Shown here piece by piece: positions 1 to 17,084 of a DNA stretch of 64,000 nt. The DNA lies in the sequence record PQ805429.1; one strand, given 5' to 3'. The notes under the pieces are model-generated. The model saw only the letters and a list, made by a program, of their open reading frames with translations, made no database searches and had not been told where the DNA came from. The translations under genes were made by a program, and so were the position numbers. How positions within the stretch are numbered: position 1 is the stretch's first letter; every line of letters begins with the position of its first letter. Source of the DNA: Escherichia phage EK5.

Positions 1-97
1 TGAAGTGTTGCAGCCTCAAACCCGTATAGTTCGGTTTGCCGATGAAGCGGGTCGTGGAATCTCTTTTGACATGGAAACAAATAACTAAGGAATAAGA

Positions 98-631
98 ATG
101 AGTTTACTAGGAAGTATTGAACTGCATGATGTAATTGACAATGGCTATCTGGATGCGGAGCATAAGTATGTTAACGCTGCTAGTGTGGATATCCGTATTG
201 GTGATACTATCCTTGTTGAAGAACAGGCTGATGGCATCGTTGATATTGATGCGAAAGAGAATCTTCAGTGGAAGGAAGTAAAGATTCCTGAAGAGGGTTT
301 GGTTATCACTCCGGGTCAGTTCTTCTTGGCTCACTCTATGGAGGAGTTTAATCTTCCAGATAACATCTCAAGTCTGTTTGTTCTGCGTTCGTCTATGGCT
401 CGTTGTGGTTTGAACCACCTTCACGCCGGTTGGGCAGATGCAGGATTTAATAGTAGTAAGCTGACATTTGAATTCCATAACGTAACCAAGCACCACAGCT
501 TACGAGTTCGTGCTGGTATGCGTGTTGGTCAGATGGTTATGTTTGAGCACTCTCATGCAGGGGAACATTCCTACGCAGTGAAGGGTCGTTATAATAACTC
601 TGAAGGTGTGGTTGCATCTAAAGGTGTGTAA
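98..631 (+). CDS. dcd: dCTP deaminase (dCTP deaminase/dUTPase superfamily)
   Basis: 177 aa; motifs RSSMARCGL, DAGFN, LEFHN, RAGMRVGQ and a C-terminal YxVKGRYNN stretch resemble E. coli Dcd; RBS AAGGAA upstream. Confidence 0.75.
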   Translation: MSLLGSIELHDVIDNGYLDAEHKYVNAASVDIRIGDTILVEEQADGIVDIDAKENLQWKEVKIPEEGLVITPGQFFLAHSMEEFNLPDNISSLFVLRSSMARCGLNHLHAGWADAGFNSSKLTFEFHNVTKHHSLRVRAGMRVGQMVMFEHSHAGEHSYAVKGRYNNSEGVVASKGV

Positions 632-829
632 ATGAAAAAGTGGATTGTTCGTGTACATGATAACACGACTGGAGAGTTAGTAGCTGTAGATTTTGTTAAG
701 ACTCGAGAACACGCACGTAGGGTCAAAAATCAATACAAGTCTACTTTTAGACTTAATAAGGTTACACTAGGAAAAGCTATCGTGAATAGTGAAGGTGCTT
801 TTTGTGTCAACAGTAAGGTTTATTACTAA
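632..829 (+). CDS. small protein, tandem paralog 1 of 3 (ends KVYY)
   Basis: 65 aa; start overlaps preceding stop; shares W..(R/K)EAR..KK...G..V.S...KV(Y/H)Y pattern with next two ORFs. Confidence 0.5.
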   Translation: MKKWIVRVHDNTTGELVAVDFVKTREHARRVKNQYKSTFRLNKVTLGKAIVNSEGAFCVNSKVYY

Positions 830-1038
830 TGAGACCAATCACTATGAGAAAATTCTGGTTAGCGAAGATTAAGTGGGCATCAGGTGGTATGACTATGACT
901 GCACTCCCTACTCGTCAACAAGCTCGAGATTTTAAAAAGACTATGCTTACTGGTGACGTGGTTAATAGTATCAGCATCCATAAGGCCAAGGAGTATTCTT
1001 CTGGTCGTGTTTATATCAGCGGAAAGGTACATTACTAA
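829..1038 (+). CDS. small protein, tandem paralog 2 of 3 (ends KVHY)
   Basis: 69 aa; TAATG stop/start overlap; paralog pattern as above. Confidence 0.5.
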   Translation: MRPITMRKFWLAKIKWASGGMTMTALPTRQQARDFKKTMLTGDVVNSISIHKAKEYSSGRVYISGKVHY

Positions 1039-1247
1039 TGAAAAAGATGTGGGCTATTCATGTTGTTTGGGATCTTGAGCAACACATGAGAAAAGATAAC
1101 ATCAAATTGTTTGATACTCGCAAAGAGGCTCGTATTGCTAAGAAACAGTTGAAGACTCTGGGCACAATAGTAAAAAGCGCTGACATACATCGCTGGTATG
1201 AAGACCCTAACACTGGTTCTTTTATGTCTAAAGTAATTTACTACTGA
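1038..1247 (+). CDS. small protein, tandem paralog 3 of 3 (ends KVIYY)
   Basis: 69 aa; TAATG overlap; paralog pattern as above. Confidence 0.5.
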   Translation: MKKMWAIHVVWDLEQHMRKDNIKLFDTRKEARIAKKQLKTLGTIVKSADIHRWYEDPNTGSFMSKVIYY

Positions 1248-1319
1248 TTGGTAGTAGATATGGTAACTCTCAAATGTATATAGAGTACAATAAGAATTTG
1301 TATTTTACAGGAGAGAGTT

Positions 1320-1649
1320 ATGTTAGATTTGAGTAAAGTGGCCCCGCCCACTGAAGAGATTACAAAATCCAAGGTGATGCAACAGTTTTATCATCGTGAT
1401 ATGCTTGGTCGCTTTATCAAGAATCGTGATGTTGTTGCTTGGTCTATTGGTAATCAGGGATATCTGTTGAAGGTTCTTCAGGTTACAGGTTCAACTGCTA
1501 AGCGAGTTAAGGTGTATGACCCTGAAATGGGGCGTTCTAAGTCAGTAGACCCACAGAACTGCATCGTAATTACCCAGCAGGTAATGGATAATATTGCACG
1601 TAACGTTGCTAACTCAGTTGAACTTGATGGAGAAAACCCAAATGCATAA
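1320..1649 (+). CDS. hypothetical protein
   Basis: 109 aa ORF with RBS GGAGAG; no recognisable motif. Confidence 0.45.
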   Translation: MLDLSKVAPPTEEITKSKVMQQFYHRDMLGRFIKNRDVVAWSIGNQGYLLKVLQVTGSTAKRVKVYDPEMGRSKSVDPQNCIVITQQVMDNIARNVANSVELDGENPNA

Positions 1650-2205
1650 GAATGTCTTTGATTTACCTGAGATTGGTCGTGACAGCTATAGTATGTTAGA
1701 CCGGTCCGACCTATCAATCTCTCGCCTTGAAACGATGCAAGGTATGATTAGTGGAAACAGCCTAGAACACATCCTGAGCTGCTTACAAGCTAACATGGAA
1801 CTCTTGCATATCAAAGCTAAAAACTACCACTGGAACGTCTCTGGTGCAGGATTTCAGGGTGTTCATGGTATGTTTGATGAGCTGGAAGATTACGCACGAC
1901 AGGTAGGAGATCGTATTGCTGAACGTATGCGTTACCACTGTGTTAAAGTGGATGCTACAGCAGCTAACTACCTCTCTCATTCTTGGTTCTCAGAGGGTAA
2001 TGCTGATCTAGACATGGACGGTATGCTCTCTGATATGTGCATGACCTTGATGTGTATTATTGAGAAGATGGATGAGTTTGATGGTGATTTAGCCACCTAC
2101 CCTGTCGATCAGAGTATGCTTCAAGAAATTAATGAAGGTCTTGGCAAGTATTGCTACTTCGTCAAGAGCAACATGTCCCATTCAAGTGGTGACGTGTCTT
2201 ACTAA
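1642..2205 (+). CDS. Dps-like ferritin-fold protein
   Basis: Start moved to ATG 1642 (overlaps upstream stop); KNYHWNVSGAGFQGVHGMFDELEDY...DRIAERM matches the Dps ferroxidase-site signature HWNV.G..F..LH..FeE...D..AER. Confidence 0.6.
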   Translation: MHKNVFDLPEIGRDSYSMLDRSDLSISRLETMQGMISGNSLEHILSCLQANMELLHIKAKNYHWNVSGAGFQGVHGMFDELEDYARQVGDRIAERMRYHCVKVDATAANYLSHSWFSEGNADLDMDGMLSDMCMTLMCIIEKMDEFDGDLATYPVDQSMLQEINEGLGKYCYFVKSNMSHSSGDVSY

Positions 2206-2266
2206 AAACCTCCGCCCTGTCTCCTAACCCGAGGTGGGGCGAACTTATTTATAAGGATATAGATAT

Positions 2267-2446
2267 ATGTTATCAGCAATCGTATGGGGTATTTGGGCTA
2301 TCTTTATTGGTGGTGGTATTTATTGGGCTTCTGGTAAGCTTATTGAAGAAACTCCTGATAAGAAAGGTGAGATTCAAACAGCATCAACCATCATGGTTAT
2401 CGTAGCTGTTGTTATCCCATTCCTGCTTCACCTCCTGACTGCATAA
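2267..2446 (+). CDS. small membrane protein (two predicted TM helices)
   Basis: 59 aa ORF below track cutoff; hydrophobic segments AIVWGIWAIFIGGGIYW and IMVIVAVVIPFLLHLL. Confidence 0.4.
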   Translation: MLSAIVWGIWAIFIGGGIYWASGKLIEETPDKKGEIQTASTIMVIVAVVIPFLLHLLTA

Positions 2447-2454
2447 GGATTTAC

Positions 2455-2730
2455 ATGTCTAAAGTAATTAAGTTTTATAGTGATCAGTGTGCTCCATGTA
2501 AAGCAATGGCTCCTACCTTTGAGAAGGTTGTTAAGGAGTTTGATGTAGAAGTGGAAGAGATTAACATCCTTGAAGGTGATGGTCGTGAACAAGCTGTTAA
2601 GTATGGTATACGAAGCATCCCTGCTTTTGTTGTGCCTGACCGTAACAGTGGTGCACACTACAGCCTCTCCGGTATGCAGACTGAAGCAAACCTGAAAGCA
2701 TTTTTGGACACAGCCCTGAGAAATAAGTAA
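2455..2730 (+). CDS. thioredoxin-fold protein (CxxC active site)
   Basis: 91 aa; FYSDQCAPCKAMAP active-site context typical of thioredoxin/glutaredoxin. Confidence 0.7.
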   Translation: MSKVIKFYSDQCAPCKAMAPTFEKVVKEFDVEVEEINILEGDGREQAVKYGIRSIPAFVVPDRNSGAHYSLSGMQTEANLKAFLDTALRNK

Positions 2731-4032: not shown

Positions 4033-4198
4033 CTTCTGTAATAAAGAGAAGACTGTCGCCAACTTTAAACCTAATCCTGTAACTGGTCTGACCCATGTCA
4101 TGTGCCACTCTTGCAGGATATATCTTGAAACAAAACACACTATCAATAGATTGCATTATTATCACCCAACAACATTCAAATTTAAGGTTGTGAAATGA
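4013..4198 (+). CDS. small Cys-rich protein (CxxC...CxxC)
   Basis: Start moved to ATG 4013; CSFCNKEK...CHSCRIY. Confidence 0.4.
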   Translation: MEKKVCSFCNKEKTVANFKPNPVTGLTHVMCHSCRIYLETKHTINRLHYYHPTTFKFKVVK

Positions 4199-4524
4199 TT
4201 GACAGTAATACATTTAGGACTTCAAATGGAAGTGAAATAAGTCCCGCTGAAGTAATCAATCGGCATAGAAGGCAATTGATCATCCATTCCTATTTGTATT
4301 ACTGGTTGGATGACCCTATCTGGTCTGATGATAAATGGCAACAAGTTGCTAATGATCTAGTGGAGCTGCAAGCTCTGTATCCAGAGCCTACCGGAGTCTT
4401 TGACAATGAGTTCAAAGATTGGGATGGTTCTACAGGAATGCATCTCCCACACAATGAGGCTGTTGCTTGTATGGCGACAGCTGTTTACAGGATTCATAAA
4501 GATATGAACCATGAAGTGCTCTAA
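4195..4524 (+). CDS. hypothetical protein with NAD-ligase domain-Ia-like motif
   Basis: 109 aa; HSYLYYWLDDPIWSDDKWQQVANDLVELQALYPEP resembles the LigA N-terminal Ia pattern [29 protein letters not shown]..HPE. Confidence 0.4.
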   Translation: MIDSNTFRTSNGSEISPAEVINRHRRQLIIHSYLYYWLDDPIWSDDKWQQVANDLVELQALYPEPTGVFDNEFKDWDGSTGMHLPHNEAVACMATAVYRIHKDMNHEVL

Positions 4525-5436: not shown

Positions 5437-5618
5437 AAGTCGCTTTAGTTATTCGAGATTGTGGTGATGGTTCATCAACCATCGACTTCTACAAAAATAT
5501 CGAACGAGCGTGTTTTGAGTGTGAAGAGTTCAATGAAGACACCTGCATGAATGATGGAGAACCTACTATCATTGACGTTCCTGATGAATTTGTACCACCG
5601 GGAGGGTGGAGTGAGTAA
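5433..5618 (+). CDS. hypothetical protein
   Basis: 61 aa ORF, ATGA overlap with phoH stop. Confidence 0.4.
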   Translation: MKVALVIRDCGDGSSTIDFYKNIERACFECEEFNEDTCMNDGEPTIIDVPDEFVPPGGWSE

Positions 5619-5799
5619 TACTCAAGAGTCAGTAATAGAAGAGATTAAAGCTCAGATAGTTGATAAACTCTCTATCAGAGTTGACTCTAAAGACACCAAA
5701 TGCTCTGGTATACTGAAAATAGAACTCCTCTACAACGGAGAGACTATTTCTTTTGACGAGGTATATGCCTCTGATATTAAATACTTAGCAGAGTTTTAA
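5611..5799 (+). CDS. hypothetical protein (start uncertain, GTG 5611 or ATG 5551)
   Basis: ORF 5551-5799 overlaps upstream gene; in-frame GTG at 5611 follows GGAGGG. Confidence 0.3.
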   Translation: MSNTQESVIEEIKAQIVDKLSIRVDSKDTKCSGILKIELLYNGETISFDEVYASDIKYLAEF

Positions 5800-5808
5800 C
5801 ATCATTCA

Positions 5809-5817
5809 TAATGTATA
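5809..5817 (+). promoter_or_regulatory. TAATGTATA(CT) motif, candidate phage-sigma promoter element
   Basis: Exact TAATGTATACT, 37 nt upstream of ATG 5854; same 11-mer at 12526. Confidence 0.5.
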
Positions 5818-5853
5818 CTCCTTAGTGTACACTGATATATTAAGGAGTTCTAA

Positions 5854-6171
5854 ATGGCAGACCATGTAGGAAAGAGAGATTATGCACAAGAAAGACGTAC
5901 CGCAATTGCCCGTGGTGAAACAGGCGTTGGGAGCAAGAGCGGAGATGCTCAGCGCCACCGTGCACGTCGCATCGTTGAAAAGCGCGATGGAAAAGCTGCT
6001 GTCAGAGGTAAAGATGTTGGACACAAACGAGCTGTCAAGTCTGGAGGCTCTAATGCGTCAAGCAACTTACGTGTTGAATCAGTCAGCTCAAACCGTTCAA
6101 ACGGCGGCAAAAGTGGTGATCGAGCTGGAAAAGCGGCTGGAGCACGCAAAGGAGCTTTAAGCTCATCGTAA
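5854..6171 (+). CDS. small basic Gly/Lys/Arg-rich protein
   Basis: 105 aa; strong RBS TAAGGAG; codon usage (cgt/ggt/gct) matches other likely high-expression genes; flanked by promoter motif and terminator. Confidence 0.5.
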   Translation: MADHVGKRDYAQERRTAIARGETGVGSKSGDAQRHRARRIVEKRDGKAAVRGKDVGHKRAVKSGGSNASSNLRVESVSSNRSNGGKSGDRAGKAAGARKGALSSS

Positions 6172-6175
6172 TATG

Positions 6176-6205
6176 AGGCTACCCAAATGGGTGGCCTTTT
6201 CTTTT
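6176..6205 (+). terminator. rho-independent terminator
   Basis: AGGCTACCC-AAAT-GGGTGGCCT stem-loop followed by TTTTCTTTTAT. Confidence 0.7.
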
Positions 6206-6239
6206 ATATAAACCAAAATAAACTTCTTAGGTAATAAAT

Positions 6240-6494
6240 ATGTCTATTGTAAAAATCGTAAATATTTTTGATGTAACCAGAGATGGCAAGATTGTTAAGT
6301 GGACTTTCACTAACCACCACAACAAATCAAACAAGATCATCGAACGGATGATTGAGATTAACCCAAAAACAGCTCGCACTAATGTAATCCTTCGTGGTGC
6401 TGATGGTAAATTCATTTCTTATAAGAATAAGAACGTAGAAAAATCTTTCCGTGTTGCAGTAGAAAATCTCATCCCATTCCCTAAAGGAGTTTAA
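6240..6494 (+). CDS. hypothetical protein, tandem paralog 1 of 2
   Basis: 84 aa; shares KTART.V.LR...GKFISY......A.E.L.PFP.G with next ORF. Confidence 0.5.
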   Translation: MSIVKIVNIFDVTRDGKIVKWTFTNHHNKSNKIIERMIEINPKTARTNVILRGADGKFISYKNKNVEKSFRVAVENLIPFPKGV

Positions 6495-6495
6495 T

Positions 6496-6780
6496 ATGAA
6501 TAAGTTAGCTATGGTACAGATTCGAGATACATACCCTAACCGCCCGGAGCAGAAACCGCGTACTTGGTCTTATCTGTTGGCTGAAAGTAAGACTATTGAC
6601 AAATACGCTGTAGGGATTGATGCTATTCCAACTAGTATCACATTGCTCCCTCACAAAACAGCCAGAACCCATGTGATGTTACGTGATAGTAAAGGTAAGT
6701 TTATCTCTTATCGTGATTCACGAATCAATAATGAAATTAAATCTGCTATGGAATTTTTGATGCCATTCCCAAGAGGTTGA
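6496..6780 (+). CDS. hypothetical protein, tandem paralog 2 of 2
   Basis: 94 aa; same conserved C-terminal block. Confidence 0.5.
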   Translation: MNKLAMVQIRDTYPNRPEQKPRTWSYLLAESKTIDKYAVGIDAIPTSITLLPHKTARTHVMLRDSKGKFISYRDSRINNEIKSAMEFLMPFPRG

Positions 6781-6783
6781 GTG

Positions 6784-6942
6784 ATGAAAGAATACATTTA
6801 CGTAGGACAGCGCTGGTTCGGCGATGAATGGGAAGGCGGATACAGCGTTGTGAAAGCTTTTAAGTCGGAAGAAGATGCCAAGTCATGGGTCTTAAAAGAC
6901 GACGTTGGCGAGAGAACTTACATTGAAGTAGAGGTGGAGTAG
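6784..6942 (+). CDS. small hypothetical protein
   Basis: 52 aa ORF below track cutoff, tightly packed between neighbours. Confidence 0.3.
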   Translation: MKEYIYVGQRWFGDEWEGGYSVVKAFKSEEDAKSWVLKDDVGERTYIEVEVE

Positions 6943-6943
6943 G

Positions 6944-7357
6944 ATGCCATTACCAGCTAGACACCAAAACCGTTTCTTAGTTCTAAAGTGGGATGATATC
7001 GAAATGAATCTCACTGAACATGAACTAGATTTGTTCCATGAATTATTATCAGAGATTCGCTCTGGTATTCCTGAACGTCAGTATGTGGTTATCAGCGATA
7101 AGCACCCTCAAGAATTTGAAGAAGCTTGGGGTATGAAACTGGCTTACATCCAAAGAGCTATTCGAGAAAGAGAAGAAGTTGCTAATCAAAGAGTTGTGGC
7201 TCATCTAGTCAGAGAACAGCCTCGTGAAGTTAGGTCTTCTTATTCTCCATCTACTTGGGCACAAACAAATGCAGCAATGAGAACATATGCTGTTGATTCC
7301 ACATCCTTGGATGTAGTAGAAGATAACCAAGCATTTACAGATTTACTTTACCAATAA
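6944..7357 (+). CDS. hypothetical protein
   Basis: 137 aa ORF immediately upstream of the polymerase gene. Confidence 0.45.
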   Translation: MPLPARHQNRFLVLKWDDIEMNLTEHELDLFHELLSEIRSGIPERQYVVISDKHPQEFEEAWGMKLAYIQRAIREREEVANQRVVAHLVREQPREVRSSYSPSTWAQTNAAMRTYAVDSTSLDVVEDNQAFTDLLYQ

Positions 7358-7373
7358 TTTAAAGGAGTATAAA

Positions 7374-9218
7374 GTGAGCAACCCGGACGCTCTTCCATTT
7401 TTGACAGAGATGACTGTCGCTGATATAATCTCTAAGCAAGCAAAGCACGGAGTGAGTTTCAACCGAAGAAATGCTCGGTGGTATGTTCACCTCCTTAAAG
7501 AGATTATTGTTAATATTGACAGAGAGTTGATTCCTCTCTTACCTAAGATGAGATTAGATGGCTCTACTTACATGAAGCCATTTAAGAAGTCTGGAGCTTT
7601 ACAGAAGTGGCCTCAAGCCTATTGTGATAGGGTTGGGCTGAAGAGAGAAGATATTGGTGGAGCTTTCACCTGTGTCGAATACGTAGACTTTGACCCATCG
7701 AAAGATGCACGAGTTAAAGAAGCTCTTATGGATGAGGGCTTTCTTCCTCCAGAGTTTAACGTATCTAAGAAGCCTTGGAATACTTTCGAAATTAAGAAAG
7801 ACATGCGAAAGTATGGAACATACCAAGCATGGTATACTGCTTGGATGCGAGGCAATGCTAAGCAGAAGCAGACAGCCGAGATGGTTGACGCTGATATTAA
7901 GAAGTTCTTAGAAAAGCATTTCAGGTTTAAAACTAAGAATTATATGAAGGCTTACGTATTTGGTTTGGGATTAAACCCTAATCGCCGTAATCCTGTAACG
8001 TTTGATGAGATTAAGAAAGCACTAGCCACATCAAACAAGTGGCCTACAGCTCCTACAAACCTCGAGGAGACTCTTGAAGAAGGGTTAGGGGGTGAGCTAG
8101 GGAGTGTCGGAAGTTTGCTTAAGAGACGCGTTGTAGCGGCTCACAGGCTAGGTCTTATCAGTGGACTCATAGCAAAGGAACGCGAAGATGGTAAACTTTC
8201 GGCAGAAGCTAACAGCTGCGCTACGCCGACTTTTCGATTCAAACATCGTATCGTGGTTAATATTCCCTCCCGTGGTCTGTTTGGTCACGAGTGTCGCAGT
8301 TTGTTTGAGTCTGACTATAACTCAGACAGTGATCACTCTCGTCCTTTCGTTATTACTAACGTTGTTCCTGATGGTTGTTATATACGAAAAGGTACTAACG
8401 TAATTTACGAGAAAGGTAAGCCGGGTAAGAAAGACAAACCTATAGGTGCTTACAAATATTACATACCCGCTGGTAAAGAAGTATTCTTAGGGTATGATGG
8501 TTCTGGACTTGAACTTCGTATGCTCGCTCACTACCTCATTAAAGAGTGTAGAGATATGCTTGCTGAGGCAATTGAAGAGAACAATCCAGCTAAGAAAGCT
8601 CTGGCAGAACGTGGTTTAGCTTCTGCTATTATGTATCGTGATATTCTCCTTGAAGGTGATATCCACTCCCACAACCAGAAACTTGCTGGTCTTCCTACTC
8701 GTGACAACGCTAAAACGTTTATCTATGCATTCAACTATGGTGCTGGCGACGCTAAGCTTGGTTCAATTGTAGGTGGTGGGGCTGACGAAGGTTCAGTGAT
8801 GCGAGCACGTTTCTTAGCAGAGAACCCATGTATTGCAATCCTCATTGATCGTATGACAGAAAAGGCTGCTCAAGGATACTTGATTGGTGTTGATGGTCGT
8901 AAGATTACAATGAGACGAGATGCCACTGGTAAAGTTATGGTTCATAAAGCACTTAACACTCTCCTGCAATGTGCTGGTGCTGTTGTTATGAAATACGCTA
9001 TGATGTTCCTTAACAAGTGGATTGAGAAAGATAAGGTTCGTTGTGCTAAGGTAATTGATATGCACGATGAAGGTCAGTTCTCAGTGAACCGTAATGATGT
9101 ACAGAAACTCAAAGAGCACACCGAGCTTTGTGTTAAGAAGGCTGGTGAGTATTTGAACATGGAATGCCCTCTGGCTTCTGATTGTCAGATTGGACTTAAC
9201 TGGATGCATACACACTAA
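7374..9218 (+). CDS. family A (T7-type) DNA polymerase, polymerase domain
   Basis: GTG start after AAAGGAG; motif A YDGSGLELRMLAHY, motif B RDNAKTFIYAFNYGAG, motif C VIDMHDEG, C-terminus GLNWMHTH (T7 gp5 ends GPNWAICH); no 3'-5' exonuclease motifs seen. Confidence 0.85.
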   Translation: MSNPDALPFLTEMTVADIISKQAKHGVSFNRRNARWYVHLLKEIIVNIDRELIPLLPKMRLDGSTYMKPFKKSGALQKWPQAYCDRVGLKREDIGGAFTCVEYVDFDPSKDARVKEALMDEGFLPPEFNVSKKPWNTFEIKKDMRKYGTYQAWYTAWMRGNAKQKQTAEMVDADIKKFLEKHFRFKTKNYMKAYVFGLGLNPNRRNPVTFDEIKKALATSNKWPTAPTNLEETLEEGLGGELGSVGSLLKRRVVAAHRLGLISGLIAKEREDGKLSAEANSCATPTFRFKHRIVVNIPSRGLFGHECRSLFESDYNSDSDHSRPFVITNVVPDGCYIRKGTNVIYEKGKPGKKDKPIGAYKYYIPAGKEVFLGYDGSGLELRMLAHYLIKECRDMLAEAIEENNPAKKALAERGLASAIMYRDILLEGDIHSHNQKLAGLPTRDNAKTFIYAFNYGAGDAKLGSIVGGGADEGSVMRARFLAENPCIAILIDRMTEKAAQGYLIGVDGRKITMRRDATGKVMVHKALNTLLQCAGAVVMKYAMMFLNKWIEKDKVRCAKVIDMHDEGQFSVNRNDVQKLKEHTELCVKKAGEYLNMECPLASDCQIGLNWMHTH

Positions 9219-9226
9219 GGTGAGTG

Positions 9227-9592
9227 ATGAAAGAAACCAATATCATCTACAGAACATTGAGATGTTTAGCTAAAGAGAGGGGGATGGAGGATTTCCTCCT
9301 CCAATATTATGAAATAACTAAGACTGGAATTTATCCAAAATGGTTTAGTGAAGATCACGGATTATGCTTCAACTTTCGCTGTTATAAGAGGTATTACTAT
9401 TTCACAAAGCATTTAGATATTGACGACATGAAGAATATGTTTAATCAAGAAAAGTTTTTGGACCCAACATACCCATTCGGATGTGATCAATATTTTAGAG
9501 ATAGGGAAAACGGGGCACATCATAAGAATCCAAAACGACGGGCTTGGATTAAAGATACACTGAAAACTCTATATAGTATTGAGGTTGAGTGA
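9227..9592 (+). CDS. hypothetical protein
   Basis: ORF, ATG 9227 after AAGGTGAG. Confidence 0.4.
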   Translation: MKETNIIYRTLRCLAKERGMEDFLLQYYEITKTGIYPKWFSEDHGLCFNFRCYKRYYYFTKHLDIDDMKNMFNQEKFLDPTYPFGCDQYFRDRENGAHHKNPKRRAWIKDTLKTLYSIEVE

Positions 9593-9783
9593 TGAGTGTT
9601 CGTGGTTATTATGAATCTTGGGCCGTCTTCAGCGGTGGCTCCACTCTCGTAGCATTAAATGGTCAACTGTGTATCTTTGAGACAGAGAACTTAGCAATAA
9701 CCAAAGCAGCAGAACTAGTTCGAAAGTTTCCAAACAAGACATTCACAGTTAAAAGGATAGAAGTACCTGCATTGGTAGAGTGA
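9592..9783 (+). CDS. hypothetical protein
   Basis: 63 aa, start overlaps previous stop. Confidence 0.4.
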   Translation: MSVRGYYESWAVFSGGSTLVALNGQLCIFETENLAITKAAELVRKFPNKTFTVKRIEVPALVE

Positions 9784-10326
9784 ATAAATAAGACGAATGA
9801 ACTATTCTTATTGATTGGTTCGTAACAAGGAGATTGAAGTGGAAGAGATGCCATCGGATTGGTGTTATCGTCAGAGCGCCATCTGTAATGAACAAGGTCG
9901 TCCTGATGAGGCTGAGTTCTATCTAGAGCTAGCCGAACTGTGGAAAGAACGAGAGGAGAAAGAGTGATGGAAGGTATTTACCGTAAACCGCCTCCAAAAT
10001 ATAACATCCTTTATATTGATGCAACAGGTGAGTTTAGAAGTGTGTTAGTTTACACGGATGAAGAACGAAACCAAATGGTTGCTGCTATTGAAGCCAATGG
10101 TGGTACAATCATGCGAATTTATAACATAACATAAGGAATATCAATGACTGCTTCTGAATTAAAAGAAACCCTATCCACTGAAGAAGGTAAAGCTTTCTTC
10201 TTATCTCAAGTACACTCTATGGGTAAAGATGCCCTTCGCCAAGCAGTCGTTGAGCTTACTGGTGTAGTGATTGACTTGAGTATTGAAAATGAAACACTTG
10301 AAGCTAAAGTGAACGGTTAAATAAGA

Positions 10327-10350
10327 AGCTGCCTTCGGGCGGCTTTTCTT
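10327..10350 (+). terminator. rho-independent terminator
   Basis: AGCTGCC-TTCG-GGCGGCT followed by TTTTCTT. Confidence 0.6.
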
Positions 10351-10366
10351 GTCTAAAGGATTTGAC

Positions 10367-10759
10367 ATGAATATTGGTTTAGATTATGATGACACTTACA
10401 CAGCAGACAGACGACTGTGGAGAGATGTGATAGGCTTGATGAAAGGGTATGGGCATGATGTAAGATTCGTGACTTTCCGTTTCTCAGAGCCTAACGGTTA
10501 TGATAACGTGGATATCCTCTATGATGCAGAGACCCTGCAAATCCCTGTCATCTTTTGTAATGGTGTACAGAAGGATGAGGTGTGTCGACAGTTAGGTTTC
10601 TTCGTCGATATCTGGATTGACGACTTCCCTGTTGGAATCCCCAAAAAGGACCACCTAGACGGTATGCTGAAGGGCGTAAGACTTAATGACCTTAGGGCAG
10701 CACCTCCTGTAGAAATAGCCGCTCCTGTGTACTCTGAAGAGCCTTTGGTGATTCGATGA
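10367..10759 (+). CDS. HAD-superfamily hydrolase, possible 5'-nucleotidase
   Basis: Start moved to ATG 10367; N-terminal MNIGLDYDDT (HAD motif I) and VDIWIDDFP (motif IV-like). Confidence 0.45.
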   Translation: MNIGLDYDDTYTADRRLWRDVIGLMKGYGHDVRFVTFRFSEPNGYDNVDILYDAETLQIPVIFCNGVQKDEVCRQLGFFVDIWIDDFPVGIPKKDHLDGMLKGVRLNDLRAAPPVEIAAPVYSEEPLVIR

Positions 10760-10932
10760 AAAAGATAATCCTTTGGGCTTTAGGTATAGCTCTTTTCCTG
10801 TATCTGATTGATCTCGGAGGAGATGCCAGTAGAGAAGACTGTGAAGTGAGATTGTCTCAGGAATTTAAGTCAGAGACAAAGTGGGTTAACGGTCGATGCT
10901 ATGTAAAAGATTGGGGAAGAACTTCTCGATGA
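10756..10932 (+). CDS. small protein with N-terminal signal/TM segment
   Basis: 58 aa; MKKIILWALGIALFLYLI hydrophobic N-terminus. Confidence 0.3.
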   Translation: MKKIILWALGIALFLYLIDLGGDASREDCEVRLSQEFKSETKWVNGRCYVKDWGRTSR

Positions 10933-11090
10933 AAAAGTATAGTGTATGGTTTAACGAAGTAGAAGAAGGTTTTGATGAAGTTGGAGGATGGGTAAATATC
11001 CTAAACACTGACGACATAGAAGAGGCCGAGAAGTGCGCCCTAAACTATAACTCTGGATATTATGAAAGAAATTGGGAATATGAGGAATAA
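10929..11090 (+). CDS. hypothetical protein
   Basis: ATGA overlap with upstream stop. Confidence 0.35.
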   Translation: MKKYSVWFNEVEEGFDEVGGWVNILNTDDIEEAEKCALNYNSGYYERNWEYEE

Positions 11091-11092
11091 GA

Positions 11093-11314
11093 ATGATTTG
11101 GGTTCACACTTATAGAATTGGGAAGAAAGGGCTTACTACTATTCACACATCTGAAGATAGTGCTAAAGCATCTCAGGCTGTACTGAAAGGAAAGATCACA
11201 CCTTATGTAGTCGCTGAAGAAAAGAAGAATCCTCCAGTTCTGGAATACTTAGGAACAGGTAAAGCTTATACAGCACTGGATGTTATTAACAACAAACAAG
11301 GAGATGTGGCATAA
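11093..11314 (+). CDS. hypothetical protein
   Basis: 73 aa ORF. Confidence 0.4.
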   Translation: MIWVHTYRIGKKGLTTIHTSEDSAKASQAVLKGKITPYVVAEEKKNPPVLEYLGTGKAYTALDVINNKQGDVA

Positions 11315-11316
11315 AA

Positions 11317-11532
11317 ATGGAATACATTGATAAATACTCAGGTGAAGATTCAACAGACGCTGAAGTTTTATTTATACTAAAAACAGACTGTCTTGAACAT
11401 GGTCAACTTATCAATTTCATTGAGTTGGCAAAACTTAAAGAAGAGATTGATCAACTGTATAGCGATGAGCAATCCAGATTACTTTCTCTATCACTTCTAG
11501 GCGATTTAACTTGCGATGGGTGTACTATCTAA
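11317..11532 (+). CDS. hypothetical protein
   Basis: 71 aa ORF. Confidence 0.4.
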   Translation: MEYIDKYSGEDSTDAEVLFILKTDCLEHGQLINFIELAKLKEEIDQLYSDEQSRLLSLSLLGDLTCDGCTI

Positions 11533-12593: not shown

Positions 12594-13340
12594 ATGTCTA
12601 TGATTCCAACTATCGCAACTGCTTCCCGTAAATCCAACTACGATGTAATCCCTGATGGTGAGTACGAAGCACGTATCGTTCGTGTAGTAGGTTTAGGTGT
12701 TCACAATCGTGACCCTTGGATTGACCCGAAGACCAAAGCAGTAACTCCTAAGAATCCGGCTTTCCGTATGGATTTGGCTTTCGAGCTGATTGGTGTTGAT
12801 GCTACTGGTAAAGATTCCGATGGTAAGGCATTAGAACCACGTCCAGCTTGCCAGTTCAAGAGCTATGATGTAAACCCACGAGCTAAGAACTCTGGTATTC
12901 TTGATCTTTGCAAGATGATTGACCCAAGTATTCAAGCACTGAAAGGTGATCTATCTTGGTTCAAGGATGTTCTGTTAGGTCAGCCTGTTAACATTCTGGT
13001 TAACTCTTATACTAACAAAGCTGGTGAAGTTAAAAACTCCATCAAGACCATTTCTCCAATCCCAACCAAATATCGTGCAGCAGTTGGTGAAGCTCGTAGT
13101 CCTCTGGTATTCTTCGAACCATATGCTGAAACCGACGAGAACGTAGCATCCTACCAACTGATGTTCCCGTTCCAGCGCAACCTGCTTACTCAAGCTAATG
13201 ACGCTAAGAACATGCCTCTGGCTGGTCGTGAAATTACTCGTGCTTCTGAAACAGAGCAGAAAGAAGCTACTCCTTCAATCCCTACGATTGATAAAGAGCC
13301 TGCTTCTACTTACGAAGACGACAACGATAGCCCATTCTAA
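12594..13340 (+). CDS. putative ssDNA-binding protein (acidic C-terminal tail)
   Basis: 248 aa; C-terminus YEDDNDSPF resembles the SSB tail DDDIPF; strong RBS AAGGAA, high-expression codon usage, promoter motif upstream and terminator downstream. Confidence 0.45.
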   Translation: MSMIPTIATASRKSNYDVIPDGEYEARIVRVVGLGVHNRDPWIDPKTKAVTPKNPAFRMDLAFELIGVDATGKDSDGKALEPRPACQFKSYDVNPRAKNSGILDLCKMIDPSIQALKGDLSWFKDVLLGQPVNILVNSYTNKAGEVKNSIKTISPIPTKYRAAVGEARSPLVFFEPYAETDENVASYQLMFPFQRNLLTQANDAKNMPLAGREITRASETEQKEATPSIPTIDKEPASTYEDDNDSPF

Positions 13341-15389: not shown

Positions 15390-16279
15390 ATGAAGAGGTA
15401 AAAGCTTTAAAGAAAGCTCTTGCAATTAAAATCAAACATTTAAATTTCGTCAGAGATGAGTTGGAGGAGCTATCCAACTTATCAGGATATGAGTTACAGA
15501 ATGAGCTTGTAGAGTTTCAAATCAATATTGATGGCGGTAAATACGTAGAAACAACTAGAGCGATTTTACCTAAAGTTACTGGTAACAAAACTTCTCCAAT
15601 AGACTACTCACATGACCACACGGAGCAATTAGAAATGGAATCTCAAGGCAATCCAGCACTGACCAATATGGTGGGAGATTCCCATTATAAGCCTTTAGTA
15701 GTAATTCTTAATGGGCCTCCGGGTTGTGGTAAAGATACGATAGCCAATGCTTGGGTTAATGCCCATTCATACCATCACAATTATTCAACCAAATCCTTCA
15801 AGGAGCCAATGTACAAGGTAGCTGCTGCTGCACTAGGCATACCTCTAGAAAACTTTCTAGCACGCTATGAAGACCGTGAATGGAAAGAAAAACCTAGACC
15901 AGAATGGGGAGGGAAGTCTGTAAGAGATTTGATGATTTCTACAAGTGAAGACTTCTTAAAACCTATGTTTGGCAACAATCATATGGGGGATCTTGCTGTA
16001 AAAAGCATCAAACAAGAAGGGCTAGGTCAGGATGATATTGTCGTGTTTACTGACGGAGGTTTTGATGCAGAGGTACGAGAACTAGAAAAGAATTTCCATG
16101 TCCAAGTTGTCCAAGTTCTTAGAGATGGTTGCTCTTTTGATGGAGACTCTCGCTCATATATTGAAGGCGAACAGAGAAAAACATATCTACTGTTTAATGA
16201 CTCAACTATTGAATCAGCAGTATCAGATCTAGATTGGATTATTGCACAAGCTCAGGATGATATTTATGGAAGAAGTTAA
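15386..16279 (+). CDS. P-loop nucleotide kinase, dNMP-kinase-like
   Basis: Walker A NGPPGCGKDTIANAW similar to T4 gp1 SGKDTTADF; N-terminal ~100 aa extra coiled-coil region; ATGA overlap with upstream gene. Confidence 0.5.
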
Positions 16280-17084
16280 GCTCCCTGAAGTTGCTATAGT
16301 GGATGCTGACGTTCTTCGATATGAAGTGGGTGCTCTTACTCAGGAGCATCCCTTTCTTGACACAGGACGTGTTCCAGTTGATTACAATTTCATGATTGAA
16401 CGACTTCAGTACAAGATAGATACAATCATTGCTCGCTCAGGTTGCAGCAAGGTTGTGTTCTACTTCAGCGAAGGTGGTAACTTCCGTTTTGATGTTGCTA
16501 AGCAGCAAGACTATAAAGCAAATAGACCTCCCGGAGAGAGACCTTTTCACTGGCAAAATGTTGGTGATTATATTAAAGGTAAATATGAATACATAGATGT
16601 ATTTGGGAGAGAGGCTGATGATGCACTAGCTGAAAGGCAACGTAGGGATAAGAACACTATCATCTGTACTAGAGACAAGGATTTGTTGATAACTCCCGGA
16701 TGGCACTACCGTTGGGCTTGTGGAGAAAGACAGAAAGAAGTTCCTCCTCACTATGTATCTGATTTAGTTTCATGGCAAAACTTCTTCTATCAGATGTTGA
16801 TTGGAGATGGTACAGATAATATCCCCGGATGTGGGGAACGTAAAGAGGTTATGTGGGGTGGTAAACTTCAGCTTCGACGTCAAGGTATAGGGAAGAAGGC
16901 AGCAACTAAATTACTAGCTGATGTTACAGATAAGTGGACCATGTATCATATAGTACGAATGGAATATTATAAGAAGTTCGATACTGAAGATGAAGAGAAG
17001 ATGCTTGAGAATGCTAGGCTGCTCTTTGTTGGTCAGACTCCGGAAGATTTATTTGATTGGACATGGTTGGATAGAGAATGGTAA
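16266..17084 (+). CDS. 5'-3' exonuclease (FEN/Pol I 5'-nuclease family)
   Basis: YKANRPP, GREADDALA and TRDKDLL match Pol I 5'-nuclease motifs YKA.R, EADD, GDKD; start moved to ATG 16266. Confidence 0.7.
   Translation: MEEVKLPEVAIVDADVLRYEVGALTQEHPFLDTGRVPVDYNFMIERLQYKIDTIIARSGCSKVVFYFSEGGNFRFDVAKQQDYKANRPPGERPFHWQNVGDYIKGKYEYIDVFGREADDALAERQRRDKNTIICTRDKDLLITPGWHYRWACGERQKEVPPHYVSDLVSWQNFFYQMLIGDGTDNIPGCGERKEVMWGGKLQLRRQGIGKKAATKLLADVTDKWTMYHIVRMEYYKKFDTEDEEKMLENARLLFVGQTPEDLFDWTWLDREW

Follow-up and report, generated by a model that had tools for sequence, protein, structure and literature searches.

The DNA polymerase of Escherichia coli phage phiEco32 is reportedly split, as described by Savalia et al. 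in 2008. In the RefSeq record of this phage, gp53 is qualified as 'DNA polymerase; lacks 5'-3' and 3'-5' exonuclease domains' and gp74 as 'DNA polymerase exonuclease subunit'. The separation of exonuclease and polymerase in phiEco32-type enzymes is thus already known, having been annotated since 2008 and treated in at least three papers. The polymerase of the LUZ24 group is likewise split, and phiEco32 is cited in that work (PMC3517423). Neither phiEco32 nor LUZ24 is mentioned in PMC10201439, where the AlphaFold2 complex of another split T7-like polymerase was found to superpose on an unsplit relative. A 69-kDa polymerase and a thioredoxin were both detected by proteomics in phage SU10 (PMC4281155), and the hypothesis of a phage thioredoxin acting as processivity factor was published in 2021 with phage Privateer (PMC7881722). 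The two points raised by a sequence-only reading of the present locus, namely a T7-type polymerase devoid of exonuclease domain and a phage thioredoxin as its possible processivity factor, were therefore both on record, the first in the RefSeq notes of phiEco32 and the second in the Privateer paper, and the discovery value of observing the split is small.

The window analysed here, i.e. the whole 64,000-nucleotide stretch from Escherichia phage EK5 (PQ805429.1), was 94-99 % identical at the nucleotide level to 98 Kuravirus-type records, and its source is a phiEco32-like E. coli podophage (Kuravirus). Positions 1-2500 were 98.9 % identical to phage ShigP1. The left edge of the window cuts a gp73-like nucleotidyltransferase gene, whose 3' end occupies positions 1-88 (+ strand); its translation, EVLQPQTRIVRFADEAGRGISFDMETNN followed by a stop, matches the C-terminus of the KM01 gp73-like protein. 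In relatives, the gp73-like gene follows the exonuclease gene, and their gene order places the exonuclease-subunit gene further out, beyond this edge.

The ORF at 7374-9218 (+ strand), a homologue of phiEco32 gp53, encodes 614 aa from a GTG start, and a Shine-Dalgarno sequence AAGGAG (7362-7367, + strand) could be read six nucleotides 5' of it. Two in-frame stop codons were located 15 to 16 codons 5' of the start, so that no upstream exonuclease could be joined to the ORF in frame. Pfam DNA_pol_A matched residues 361-611 (E=2.5e-23), while the PHROG 17 profile 'DNA polymerase' covered residues 8-613 at profile positions 836-1233 (E=7e-79). Among solved structures, T7 gp5 matched best by sequence (E=1e-32). 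The fold comparison likewise ranked it first: from the AlphaFold2 model (pLDDT 91.9), Foldseek retrieved it at E=7e-26 and probability 1.0, T7 gp5 chains filling ranks 1-27. According to hhalign, residue 1 corresponds approximately to T7 F206, within the exonuclease/polymerase linker, and the alignment extends to the C-terminal histidine.

All three catalytic motifs could be recognised. Motif A displayed D375 and E380 within DGSGLELR (T7 D475 and E480), both invariant in 103 homologues. Motif B comprised R443, K447, Y451 and Y455, its segment RDNAKTFIYAFNYG pairing with RDNAKTFIYGFLYG of T7; R443, K447 and Y451 are the counterparts of T7 R518, K522 and Y526, and the tyrosine at position B3 is a marker of the T7 clade (PMC10201439). 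Motif C (H564-D565-E566) reproduced the HDE of T7, and the terminal H614 its H704. Residues of motifs A, B and C as well as H614 were invariant or nearly so among the 103 homologues. The polypeptide displayed no 3'-5' exonuclease domain (DxE) and no PF01612 match. Profiles, fold and motifs agreed, and the sequence and predicted model confirmed the ORF as a real and catalytically complete T7-type family A polymerase without exonuclease domain, as the sequence-only reading had proposed.

That reading had also seen no Exo motifs in the adjoining ORFs and had left the exonuclease either outside the window or absent. ORFs 6944-7357 and 9224-9592 indeed gave no exonuclease signal with Pfam, PHROGs or NCBIfam, and a six-frame tblastn search of the whole window with the T7 exonuclease domain and the KM01 exonuclease subunit as queries returned no match (best E=3.5). 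Only the first of the two possibilities was retained, the relatives' gene being situated to the left of the window edge. In ShigP1, a separate exonuclease gene occupies what would be window coordinates of about -1785 to -1228, directly 3' of the primase/helicase gene, and the order is the same in KM01 and phiEco32. The closest genomes carry this gene, of 185 aa and with Exo I, II and III intact, beside the primase/helicase gene. Judging from genomes 96-99 % identical, the exonuclease gene of EK5 itself should be located some 1.2-1.8 kb to the left of base 1.

The KM01 exonuclease subunit matched PF01612 at E=4.5e-8, over the Pfam cut-off, displayed Exo I (FDIE), Exo II (HNIIDFD) and Exo III (YCEQD), and was 33 % identical to residues 5-196 of T7 gp5 (E=3e-17). 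It stops around T7 residue 200 while the polymerase begins around residue 206; likewise, the subunit occupies positions 667-826 of PHROG 17, consecutive with the 836-1233 of the polymerase. Among phage records, the exonuclease subunit was found in 97 (at least 60 % identity) and the polymerase in 98 (at least 80 %). About 20 genes separate the two over a distance of 8.0-8.6 kb (8-9 kb in round figures), and coupled expression is therefore not evident. The order helicase, exonuclease, intervening genes, polymerase and 5'-3' exonuclease was recovered, in whole or in part, in phages TL and 7-11 and in seven metagenomic relatives. A gene for a small basic HNH-like protein (5854-6171, + strand; phiEco32 gp58 homologue) always lies between the exonuclease and polymerase genes in the split clade.

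In all probability, the replicative polymerase is of T7 type and encoded by two genes, ORF 7374-9218 supplying the polymerase subunit and a separate gene the exonuclease. An ancestor resembling T7 gene 5 would have been broken at the exonuclease/polymerase linker. The exonuclease half (185 aa, motifs intact) would have remained beside the primase/helicase gene, and the polymerase half would have come to lie about 8.6 kb downstream of it, behind a block of nucleotide-metabolism genes. By analogy, the two proteins would most likely form a proofreading polymerase through non-covalent association, and this enzyme would act together with a T7 gp4-like primase/helicase, a probable single-strand binding protein (SSB) with a gp2.5-style acidic tail and a gp6-like 5'-3' exonuclease. 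The phage thioredoxin would most likely be a redox protein of the nucleotide-supply module.

The distance of 8-9 kb between the two genes would also suit a polymerase that works alone as a non-proofreading enzyme and an exonuclease that acts separately, e.g. in recombination or host DNA degradation. This is very unlikely, however, as the exonuclease keeps Exo I-III and is the nearest relative of the proofreading domain in T7 gp5, the halves divide one profile without gap or overlap, both are found together in essentially every genome, and family A polymerases reportedly need an exonuclease domain for stability (PMC10201439). An artefactual loss of the domain through frameshift, misassembly or truncation into a pseudogene was refuted by conservation, a protein of 610-618 aa recurring in dozens of independent genomes and in metagenomes, as well as by the strong Shine-Dalgarno sequence before the start, the in-frame stops upstream and the detection of the polymerase by mass spectrometry in SU10 (PMC4281155).

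The polymerase displayed four insertions. The thumb insert (7542-7700, + strand; residues 57-109, 53 aa) is situated before helix H1, where T7 carries its thioredoxin-binding domain, for which the sequence-only reading had called for an alignment against T7 gp5. In this alignment the insert was placed by hhalign opposite T7 G262-S337 (76 aa), with gaps at three T7 loop segments (about 271-277, 284-291 and 315-321). It partly resembles the C-terminal half of the T7 domain (GGAFTCVEYVDFDPS versus GAPYTPVEHVVFNPS), and pairwise BLAST aligned residues 72-134 with T7 293-362 at E=6e-5. As a criterion for a thioredoxin-binding domain, about 76 aa are found in T7 while PMC10201439 counts inserts of at least 50 aa. 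The insert measured 47-52 aa across all 103 clade members, and in the AlphaFold2 model it formed an ordered beta-alpha-beta element with pLDDT of about 90.

A helical insertion, ins2 (7779-8057, + strand; residues 136-228), follows thumb helix H1 and has no equivalent in T7 gp5. It measured 49-93 aa in 96 out of 96 homologues lacking the exonuclease domain, in contrast to 3-6 aa in seven fused exonuclease-polymerase relatives. The beta-strand insertion ins3 (8325-8477, + strand; residues 318-368), directly before motif A, is again missing from T7 gp5 and ranged from 0 to 55 aa among exonuclease-less homologues. Finally, the helical ins4 (8535-8633, + strand; residues 388-420), after motif A, reached 33 aa in the Kuravirus-like branch only, and 5 aa elsewhere.

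The phage thioredoxin gene (2455-2730, + strand; phiEco32 gp65 homologue, 91 aa) was correctly identified in the sequence-only reading: PF00085 was matched at E=2.7e-13 (50.3 bits versus a cut-off of 23.5), and both the CAPC active site and the cis-proline, in IP(A/T), were present. The redox site (CxPC) is thus kept, and together with the cis-proline it was invariant down to 33 % identity. The protein was 32 % identical to E. coli TrxA, of which it lacks the first ~20 residues, and fell under the NCBIfam equivalog cut-offs (49.5 versus 96.8). The residue at the position of E. coli Gly92 was invariant, while that of Gly74 is a serine here. The gene was said to lie next to the polymerase, but only loosely so: it is upstream, separated by 4.6 kb and roughly 15 genes.

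Its neighbours encode a dCTP deaminase, a Dps/ferritin-like protein and ThyX. In related loci L010 and L012 the thioredoxin block includes the anaerobic reductase NrdD/NrdG; in L014 it includes an ATP-cone ORF, and the small subunit of a class I ribonucleotide reductase is encoded upstream of the helicase; and in L015 a glutaredoxin gene is located directly upstream of a class I ribonucleotide reductase. The thioredoxin is common to the Kuravirus, 7-11, GAP52 and Privateer groups. No ribonucleotide reductase was annotated in phiEco32 and none was found near the thioredoxin gene in other Kuraviruses, in 7-11 or in L011; the thioredoxin is thus kept without an annotated or nearby reductase, and a purely reductase-linked role fails to explain its retention.

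Several readings of how the polymerase might achieve processivity were weighed. Tentatively, it may need no thioredoxin at all, the ordered thumb insert and ins2 (136-228) gripping DNA and conferring intrinsic processivity. Both elements were modelled at pLDDT 84-97, ins2 was present in each of the 96 exonuclease-less homologues, and it follows helix H1, the site of a thumb insertion of ~100 aa proposed to aid processivity in phiKMV-like phages (PMC10201439). However, ins2 might just as well serve the detached exonuclease subunit as a docking surface, and one evolutionary event may account for its correlation with the split.

It is rather unlikely that host TrxA would be recruited through the thumb insert as in T7, the phage thioredoxin serving for redox only. 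E. coli is the host of T7 too, the insert is homologous to the T7 domain by position and partly by sequence, and every clade member could draw on TrxA, in keeping with a universal insert; on the other hand, the insert lacks roughly one third of the T7 domain. A literature search found no published host-factor data for Kuraviruses, nor experimental data on thioredoxin binding or processivity gain.

The proposal that the phage thioredoxin would itself be the processivity subunit, bound to the shortened insert 57-109 as E. coli thioredoxin is to T7 polymerase, is unlikely. It can draw on the insert being exactly at the position of the T7 domain and similar to its C-terminal half, on the conservation of the thioredoxin over the Kuravirus, 7-11, GAP52 and Privateer groups, on its retention where ribonucleotide reductase is neither annotated nor nearby, on the invariant Gly92-equivalent residue and on the presence of both proteins in SU10 proteomics (PMC4281155). 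The distribution of the insert argues against it, as all 103 clade members displayed one, including TL, L009 and L013, for which no thioredoxin gene was found in the stretches searched (in TL, positions 1-30000 out of 45.7 kb, where the early and replication genes lie; in L009 and L013, up to 10 kb from the polymerase). No difference in insert sequence was observed between thioredoxin-encoding and non-encoding genomes, the T7 domain exceeds the insert by 23 aa, the insert is modelled as an ordered mini-domain, and the thioredoxin gene travels with the nucleotide-metabolism module rather than with the polymerase. The serine at the Gly74 position also speaks against it; a G74D thioredoxin mutant is said to block growth of T7. 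T7 Thr327, which would lie beside Cys32 of thioredoxin, would align with T99 here, although a search of the literature found no support for this proximity; C100, which follows T99, was not conserved in the clade. Elsewhere, Syn5's own thioredoxin was judged an unlikely processivity factor (bioRxiv 10.1101/2025.10.05.680603), and for a different split T7-like polymerase, whose domain is also shortened, AlphaFold2 did not yield a complex with thioredoxin (PMC10201439).

Quite unlikely is a three-part replicase uniting the polymerase, the detached proofreading subunit and the phage thioredoxin on the thumb insert, with ins2 as docking platform for the exonuclease. If true, this platform would replace the lost covalent link to the exonuclease.

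A T7 gp6-like 5'-3' exonuclease, overlooked in the sequence-only reading, is encoded at 16266-17084 (+ strand; phiEco32 gp33 homologue) and matched PHROG 107 'exonuclease' at E=1.4e-64. As called mechanically, its ORF opens at TTG 16242, and ATG 16266 fits the length of phiEco32 gp33. Matches to PF02739 and PF01367 were weak and under the Pfam cut-offs, and a PDB sequence search gave no useful match. The ORF at 12594-13340 (+ strand; phiEco32 gp40 homologue) encodes a probable T7 gp2.5-type SSB with an acidic tail (...YEDDNDSPF). No similarity to T7 gp2.5 or TL gp35 was found, so that this assignment relies on tail motif and gene position: ORFs at the same place in seven related loci end in DDxxPF, and in T7, gp2.5 ends in DEDGDF and gp4 in NDTDF. 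ORF 6944-7357 (gp54) was considered as a degenerate exonuclease or accessory protein and rejected, having no family matches and being unconserved outside Kuravirus. The LUZ24/tf nick-site motif TACTRTGMC was not enriched (three in the window versus 1.7 expected).

Phages of this kind offer a convenient E. coli system, both for a family A polymerase whose proofreading domain is a separate protein and for weighing a phage-encoded thioredoxin as polymerase clamp against one as reductant.

Compared with phiEco32 (NC_010324), which carries the same gene as gp53 and a separate gp74, no difference of substance was observed. The DNA was about 95 % identical, both polymerases count 614 aa, and the surroundings agreed as well, both in the neighbouring genes and in gene order with respect to thioredoxin, PhoH and 5'-3' exonuclease; the window ends short of the gp74 homologue. 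In the replicase of T7 gp5 with E. coli thioredoxin (PDB 1T7P, 2AJQ), gp5 was the best match by sequence and fold. Shared features were motifs A, B and C, the tyrosine at the Y526 position, the C-terminal histidine and the thumb insert at the site of the thioredoxin-binding domain, together with acidic tails and an aromatic C-terminus on the helicase and probable SSB. Unlike in T7, exonuclease and polymerase are two proteins, the thumb insert counts 53 instead of 76 aa, ins2, ins3 and ins4 are extra, and EK5 encodes its own N-terminally shortened thioredoxin.

The 'DNA polymerase part I / part II' of LUZ24-like phages (Bruynoghevirus) displayed the same split and synteny, with an HNH-like gene between the halves, and a polymerase 39-41 % identical to the product of ORF 7374-9218. 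There, however, the halves are only about 2 kb apart, a thioredoxin gene is lacking, ins2 is reduced to 63 aa, ins4 is absent, and in some members the polymerase gene contains an intron or endonuclease. S-SBP1-like phages (Czernecki et al., NAR 2023, PMC10201439) likewise possess T7-like, separate exonuclease and polymerase genes and a shortened thioredoxin-binding domain; their genes are adjacent and were made by a 1-nt frameshift, whereas about 20 genes separate them here and the polymerase displays extra insertions.

By megablast, regions 5500-11500 and 1-2500 of the window matched 98 phage records at 94-99% identity and with conserved gene order. Each record is from a phiEco32-type phage of Escherichia or Shigella (Kuravirus, Gordonclarkvirinae). 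The window is antiparallel to the phiEco32 reference, in which gp53 and gp65 are the homologues of ORFs 7374-9218 and 2455-2730, respectively. The former ORF comprised 614 codons from a GTG start at 7374, with a Shine-Dalgarno-like AAGGAG located 6 nt ahead. Its designation as a T7-type polymerase in the sequence-only reading was borne out by sequence, fold and catalytic residues. Pfam DNA_pol_A covered residues 361-611 (E=2.5e-23), and among solved structures T7 gp5 gave the best sequence match (residues 421-614 versus T7 496-704, E=1e-32). It was also the best by fold, since Foldseek with an AlphaFold2 model (pLDDT 91.9, input alignment of 103 homologues) placed T7 gp5 chains at ranks 1-27 (top E=7e-26). 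The catalytic residues were all present, in motifs A (D375, E380), B (R443, K447, Y451, Y455) and C (H564-D565-E566) and at the C-terminal H614, and showed little or no variation across the family.

The polymerase had also been described as devoid of an N-terminal exonuclease domain, with none in adjacent ORFs, and both statements held. Residue 1 corresponded approximately to T7 F206, where the polymerase domain begins (profile alignment), the PHROG 17 match (residues 8-613) was confined to profile positions 836-1233 of 1445, and flanking ORFs lacked an exonuclease signal. Two stop codons were encountered in frame 15-16 codons upstream of the GTG, so that the domain is not recoverable via read-through or simple sequence correction; no in-frame upstream exonuclease was found. 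When the 64 kb were searched in six frames with the T7 exonuclease domain and the related exonuclease subunit, no 3'-5' exonuclease was detected in the window (best E=3.5). ORF 16266-17084, homologous to phiEco32 gp33 (PHROG 107, E=1.4e-64; weak 5'-3' exonuclease Pfam matches), is a T7 gp6-type 5'-3' exonuclease and not a proofreader.

Of the two fates first proposed for the proofreading exonuclease, a location outside the window stood and absence did not. In phiEco32, gp74 is annotated 'DNA polymerase exonuclease subunit; contains 3'-5' exonuclease domain' and is flanked by gp75 (primase/helicase) and gp73 (nucleotidyltransferase). Window bases 1-88 encode the final 28 residues of the gp73 homologue, and ShigP1, 98.9% identical to window 1-2500, carries the exonuclease gene at window coordinates of about -1785 to -1228. 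The KM01 subunit (185 aa) exceeded the Pfam cut-off for PF01612, displayed Exo I FDIE, Exo II HNIIDFD and Exo III YCEQD, and was 33% identical to T7 gp5 residues 5-196 (E=3e-17). The exonuclease protein ends around T7 residue 200 and the polymerase starts around 206, their PHROG 17 ranges are consecutive (667-826 and 836-1233), and they were found in 97 records (at least 60% identity) and 98 records (at least 80%), respectively. The exonuclease has not been lost; rather, the gene has split cleanly at the linker between the two domains. The KM01 primase/helicase and exonuclease-subunit genes share 7 nt (L005 2564-2570, beyond the window), with the GTG within ...CCGTGGTAA, an overlap which suggests translational coupling of helicase and proofreading subunit.

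The exo-less architecture (490-618 aa) persisted to about 35% identity among the best 120 homologues, including LUZ24-like Pseudomonas phages ('DNA polymerase part II'), Vibrio phage Vp_R1 and Aeromonas phage BUCT695. Fused relatives appeared only at the bottom of this list (E about 1e-85, ~43% identity across two-thirds of the query). The split has been described as common to the whole group (PMC9965538) and is also known from the LUZ24 group (PMC3517423); the polymerase finding is real, ordinary and previously described.

Compared with T7 gp5, a thumb insert (residues 57-109, 53 aa) falls between thumb helices H and H1, where hhalign placed the 76-aa thioredoxin-binding domain of T7 (G262-S337). 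In that alignment the shortfall lies in three T7 loop segments; the C-terminal part retained recognisable T7 similarity (pairwise HSP E=6e-5). It was modelled as an ordered beta-alpha-beta unit (pLDDT about 90) and measured 47-52 aa in 103/103 aligned homologues, split and fused alike. Three further insertions are lacking in T7 gp5: ins2 (residues 136-228), a helical subdomain following helix H1; ins3 (318-368), beta-rich and variable in length; and ins4 (388-420), restricted to the Kuravirus-like branch. Ins2 was 49-93 aa long in 96/96 exo-less sequences and 3-6 aa in 7/7 fused ones; it may serve in docking of the detached exonuclease or in DNA grip.

The 91-aa product of 2455-2730 had been named a thioredoxin, and rightly so by its sequence: it displayed a CAPC motif, a cis-Pro and 32% identity to E. 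coli TrxA, of which it lacks the first ~20 residues. C12, P14, C15, P56 and G73 were invariant among homologues as low as 33% identity, which points to a redox site under selection. That it acts as processivity factor is a published hypothesis for exactly these phages and not a new one (PMC7881722). A partnership with the phage thioredoxin appears rather unlikely, and the comparative evidence gathered here leans mildly against a dedicated pair. Alternatively, host TrxA may be the partner, or processivity may be intrinsic to the polymerase. Thioredoxin was found in Kuravirus, 7-11, GAP52, Privateer and the metagenomic loci L010, L011 (a 70-aa CGPC form), L012 and L014; it was not detected in bases 1-30000 of TL (genome 45.7 kb), nor in L009 and L013 at distances of up to 10 kb from the polymerase, and the thumb insert was the same in both sets. 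C100 (window 7671-7673), found in the closest Kuravirus polymerases, follows a Thr aligned with T7 Thr327, which presumably adjoins thioredoxin Cys32; this Cys is not conserved across the wider clade, which displays A, V or P. The neighbours of the thioredoxin gene in its block are dCTP deaminase, a Dps/ferritin-like protein and ThyX, joined in L010 and L012 by anaerobic ribonucleotide reductase NrdD/NrdG and in L014 by an ATP-cone ORF. L014 also encodes a class I small subunit upstream of its helicase gene, and in L015 a glutaredoxin immediately precedes a class I reductase. A comparable thioredoxin of Syn5 was judged more likely to serve the reductase (bioRxiv 10.1101/2025.10.05.680603). Retention in Kuravirus, 7-11 and L011 without annotated or nearby reductase counts against a purely reductase-linked role.

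The polymerase gene, uninterrupted in the window, is a mobile-element target in relatives. In phage TL (L007 10034-12340), two polymerase pieces flank an endonuclease VII gene, the match of Kuravirus LAMP was in pieces, the searched region of Kuraviruses EcoN5 and YW01 included an HNH homing-endonuclease gene, and database matches P0014-P0017 (449-457 aa) reached only about 73% query coverage. The gp58 homologue (5854-6171, plus strand; PHROG 4590 'unknown'), a very basic Gly/Ser/Lys/Arg-rich protein of 105 aa, lay between exonuclease and polymerase genes in 10/10 split-clade loci examined, window included, and went undetected in two relatives with a fused polymerase. It was better conserved (56-71% identity) than the polymerase (39-50%) across the split clade. 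A Cys-less minimal HNH is suggested by the motif DVxHK..GGSN...NL.......N and by an AlphaFold2 model of modest quality (pLDDT 71), for which the best PDB matches, none of them significant, were all HNH beta-beta-alpha-metal nucleases. The protein could be what remains, after domestication, of the element that split the polymerase gene, or it could belong to the replisome. Tandem small paralogues follow on the plus strand (6240-6494 and 6496-6780; PHROG 6814, a function-unknown family, both E about 1e-36). ORF 4195-4524 (plus strand, 109 aa; PF22745, E=2e-35), labelled 'DNA ligase' in relatives, is no complete ligase, as it consists only of the stand-alone N-terminal Ia (NAD+-binding) domain of NAD-dependent ligase and lacks adenylation and OB domains.

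Likeness to T7 extended to protein tails. Acidic, aromatic-ended tails of the T7 style (gp2.5, DEDGDF; gp4, NDTDF) dock on the polymerase. The 'hypothetical' gp40 homologue (12594-13340, plus strand, 248 aa) ends in ...YEDDNDSPF and, by analogy of this tail, is probably an SSB, without sequence similarity to gp2.5; ORFs at its position in seven related loci end in DDxxPF. The KM01 helicase ends in GASPW, and TL displays DAPI (SSB) and DTPI (helicase). The order helicase, exonuclease, inserted genes, polymerase and 5'-3' exonuclease recurred in part in phages TL and 7-11 and on seven contigs from metagenomes. This order resembles T7 genes 4, 5 and 6, and we infer a cassette inserted into gene 5. 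A different split is reported for S-SBP1-like cyanophages, whose two genes are adjacent and whose halves were modelled as a normal complex in a 2023 revision of family A polymerase classification that leaves phiEco32 and LUZ24 unmentioned (PMC10201439).
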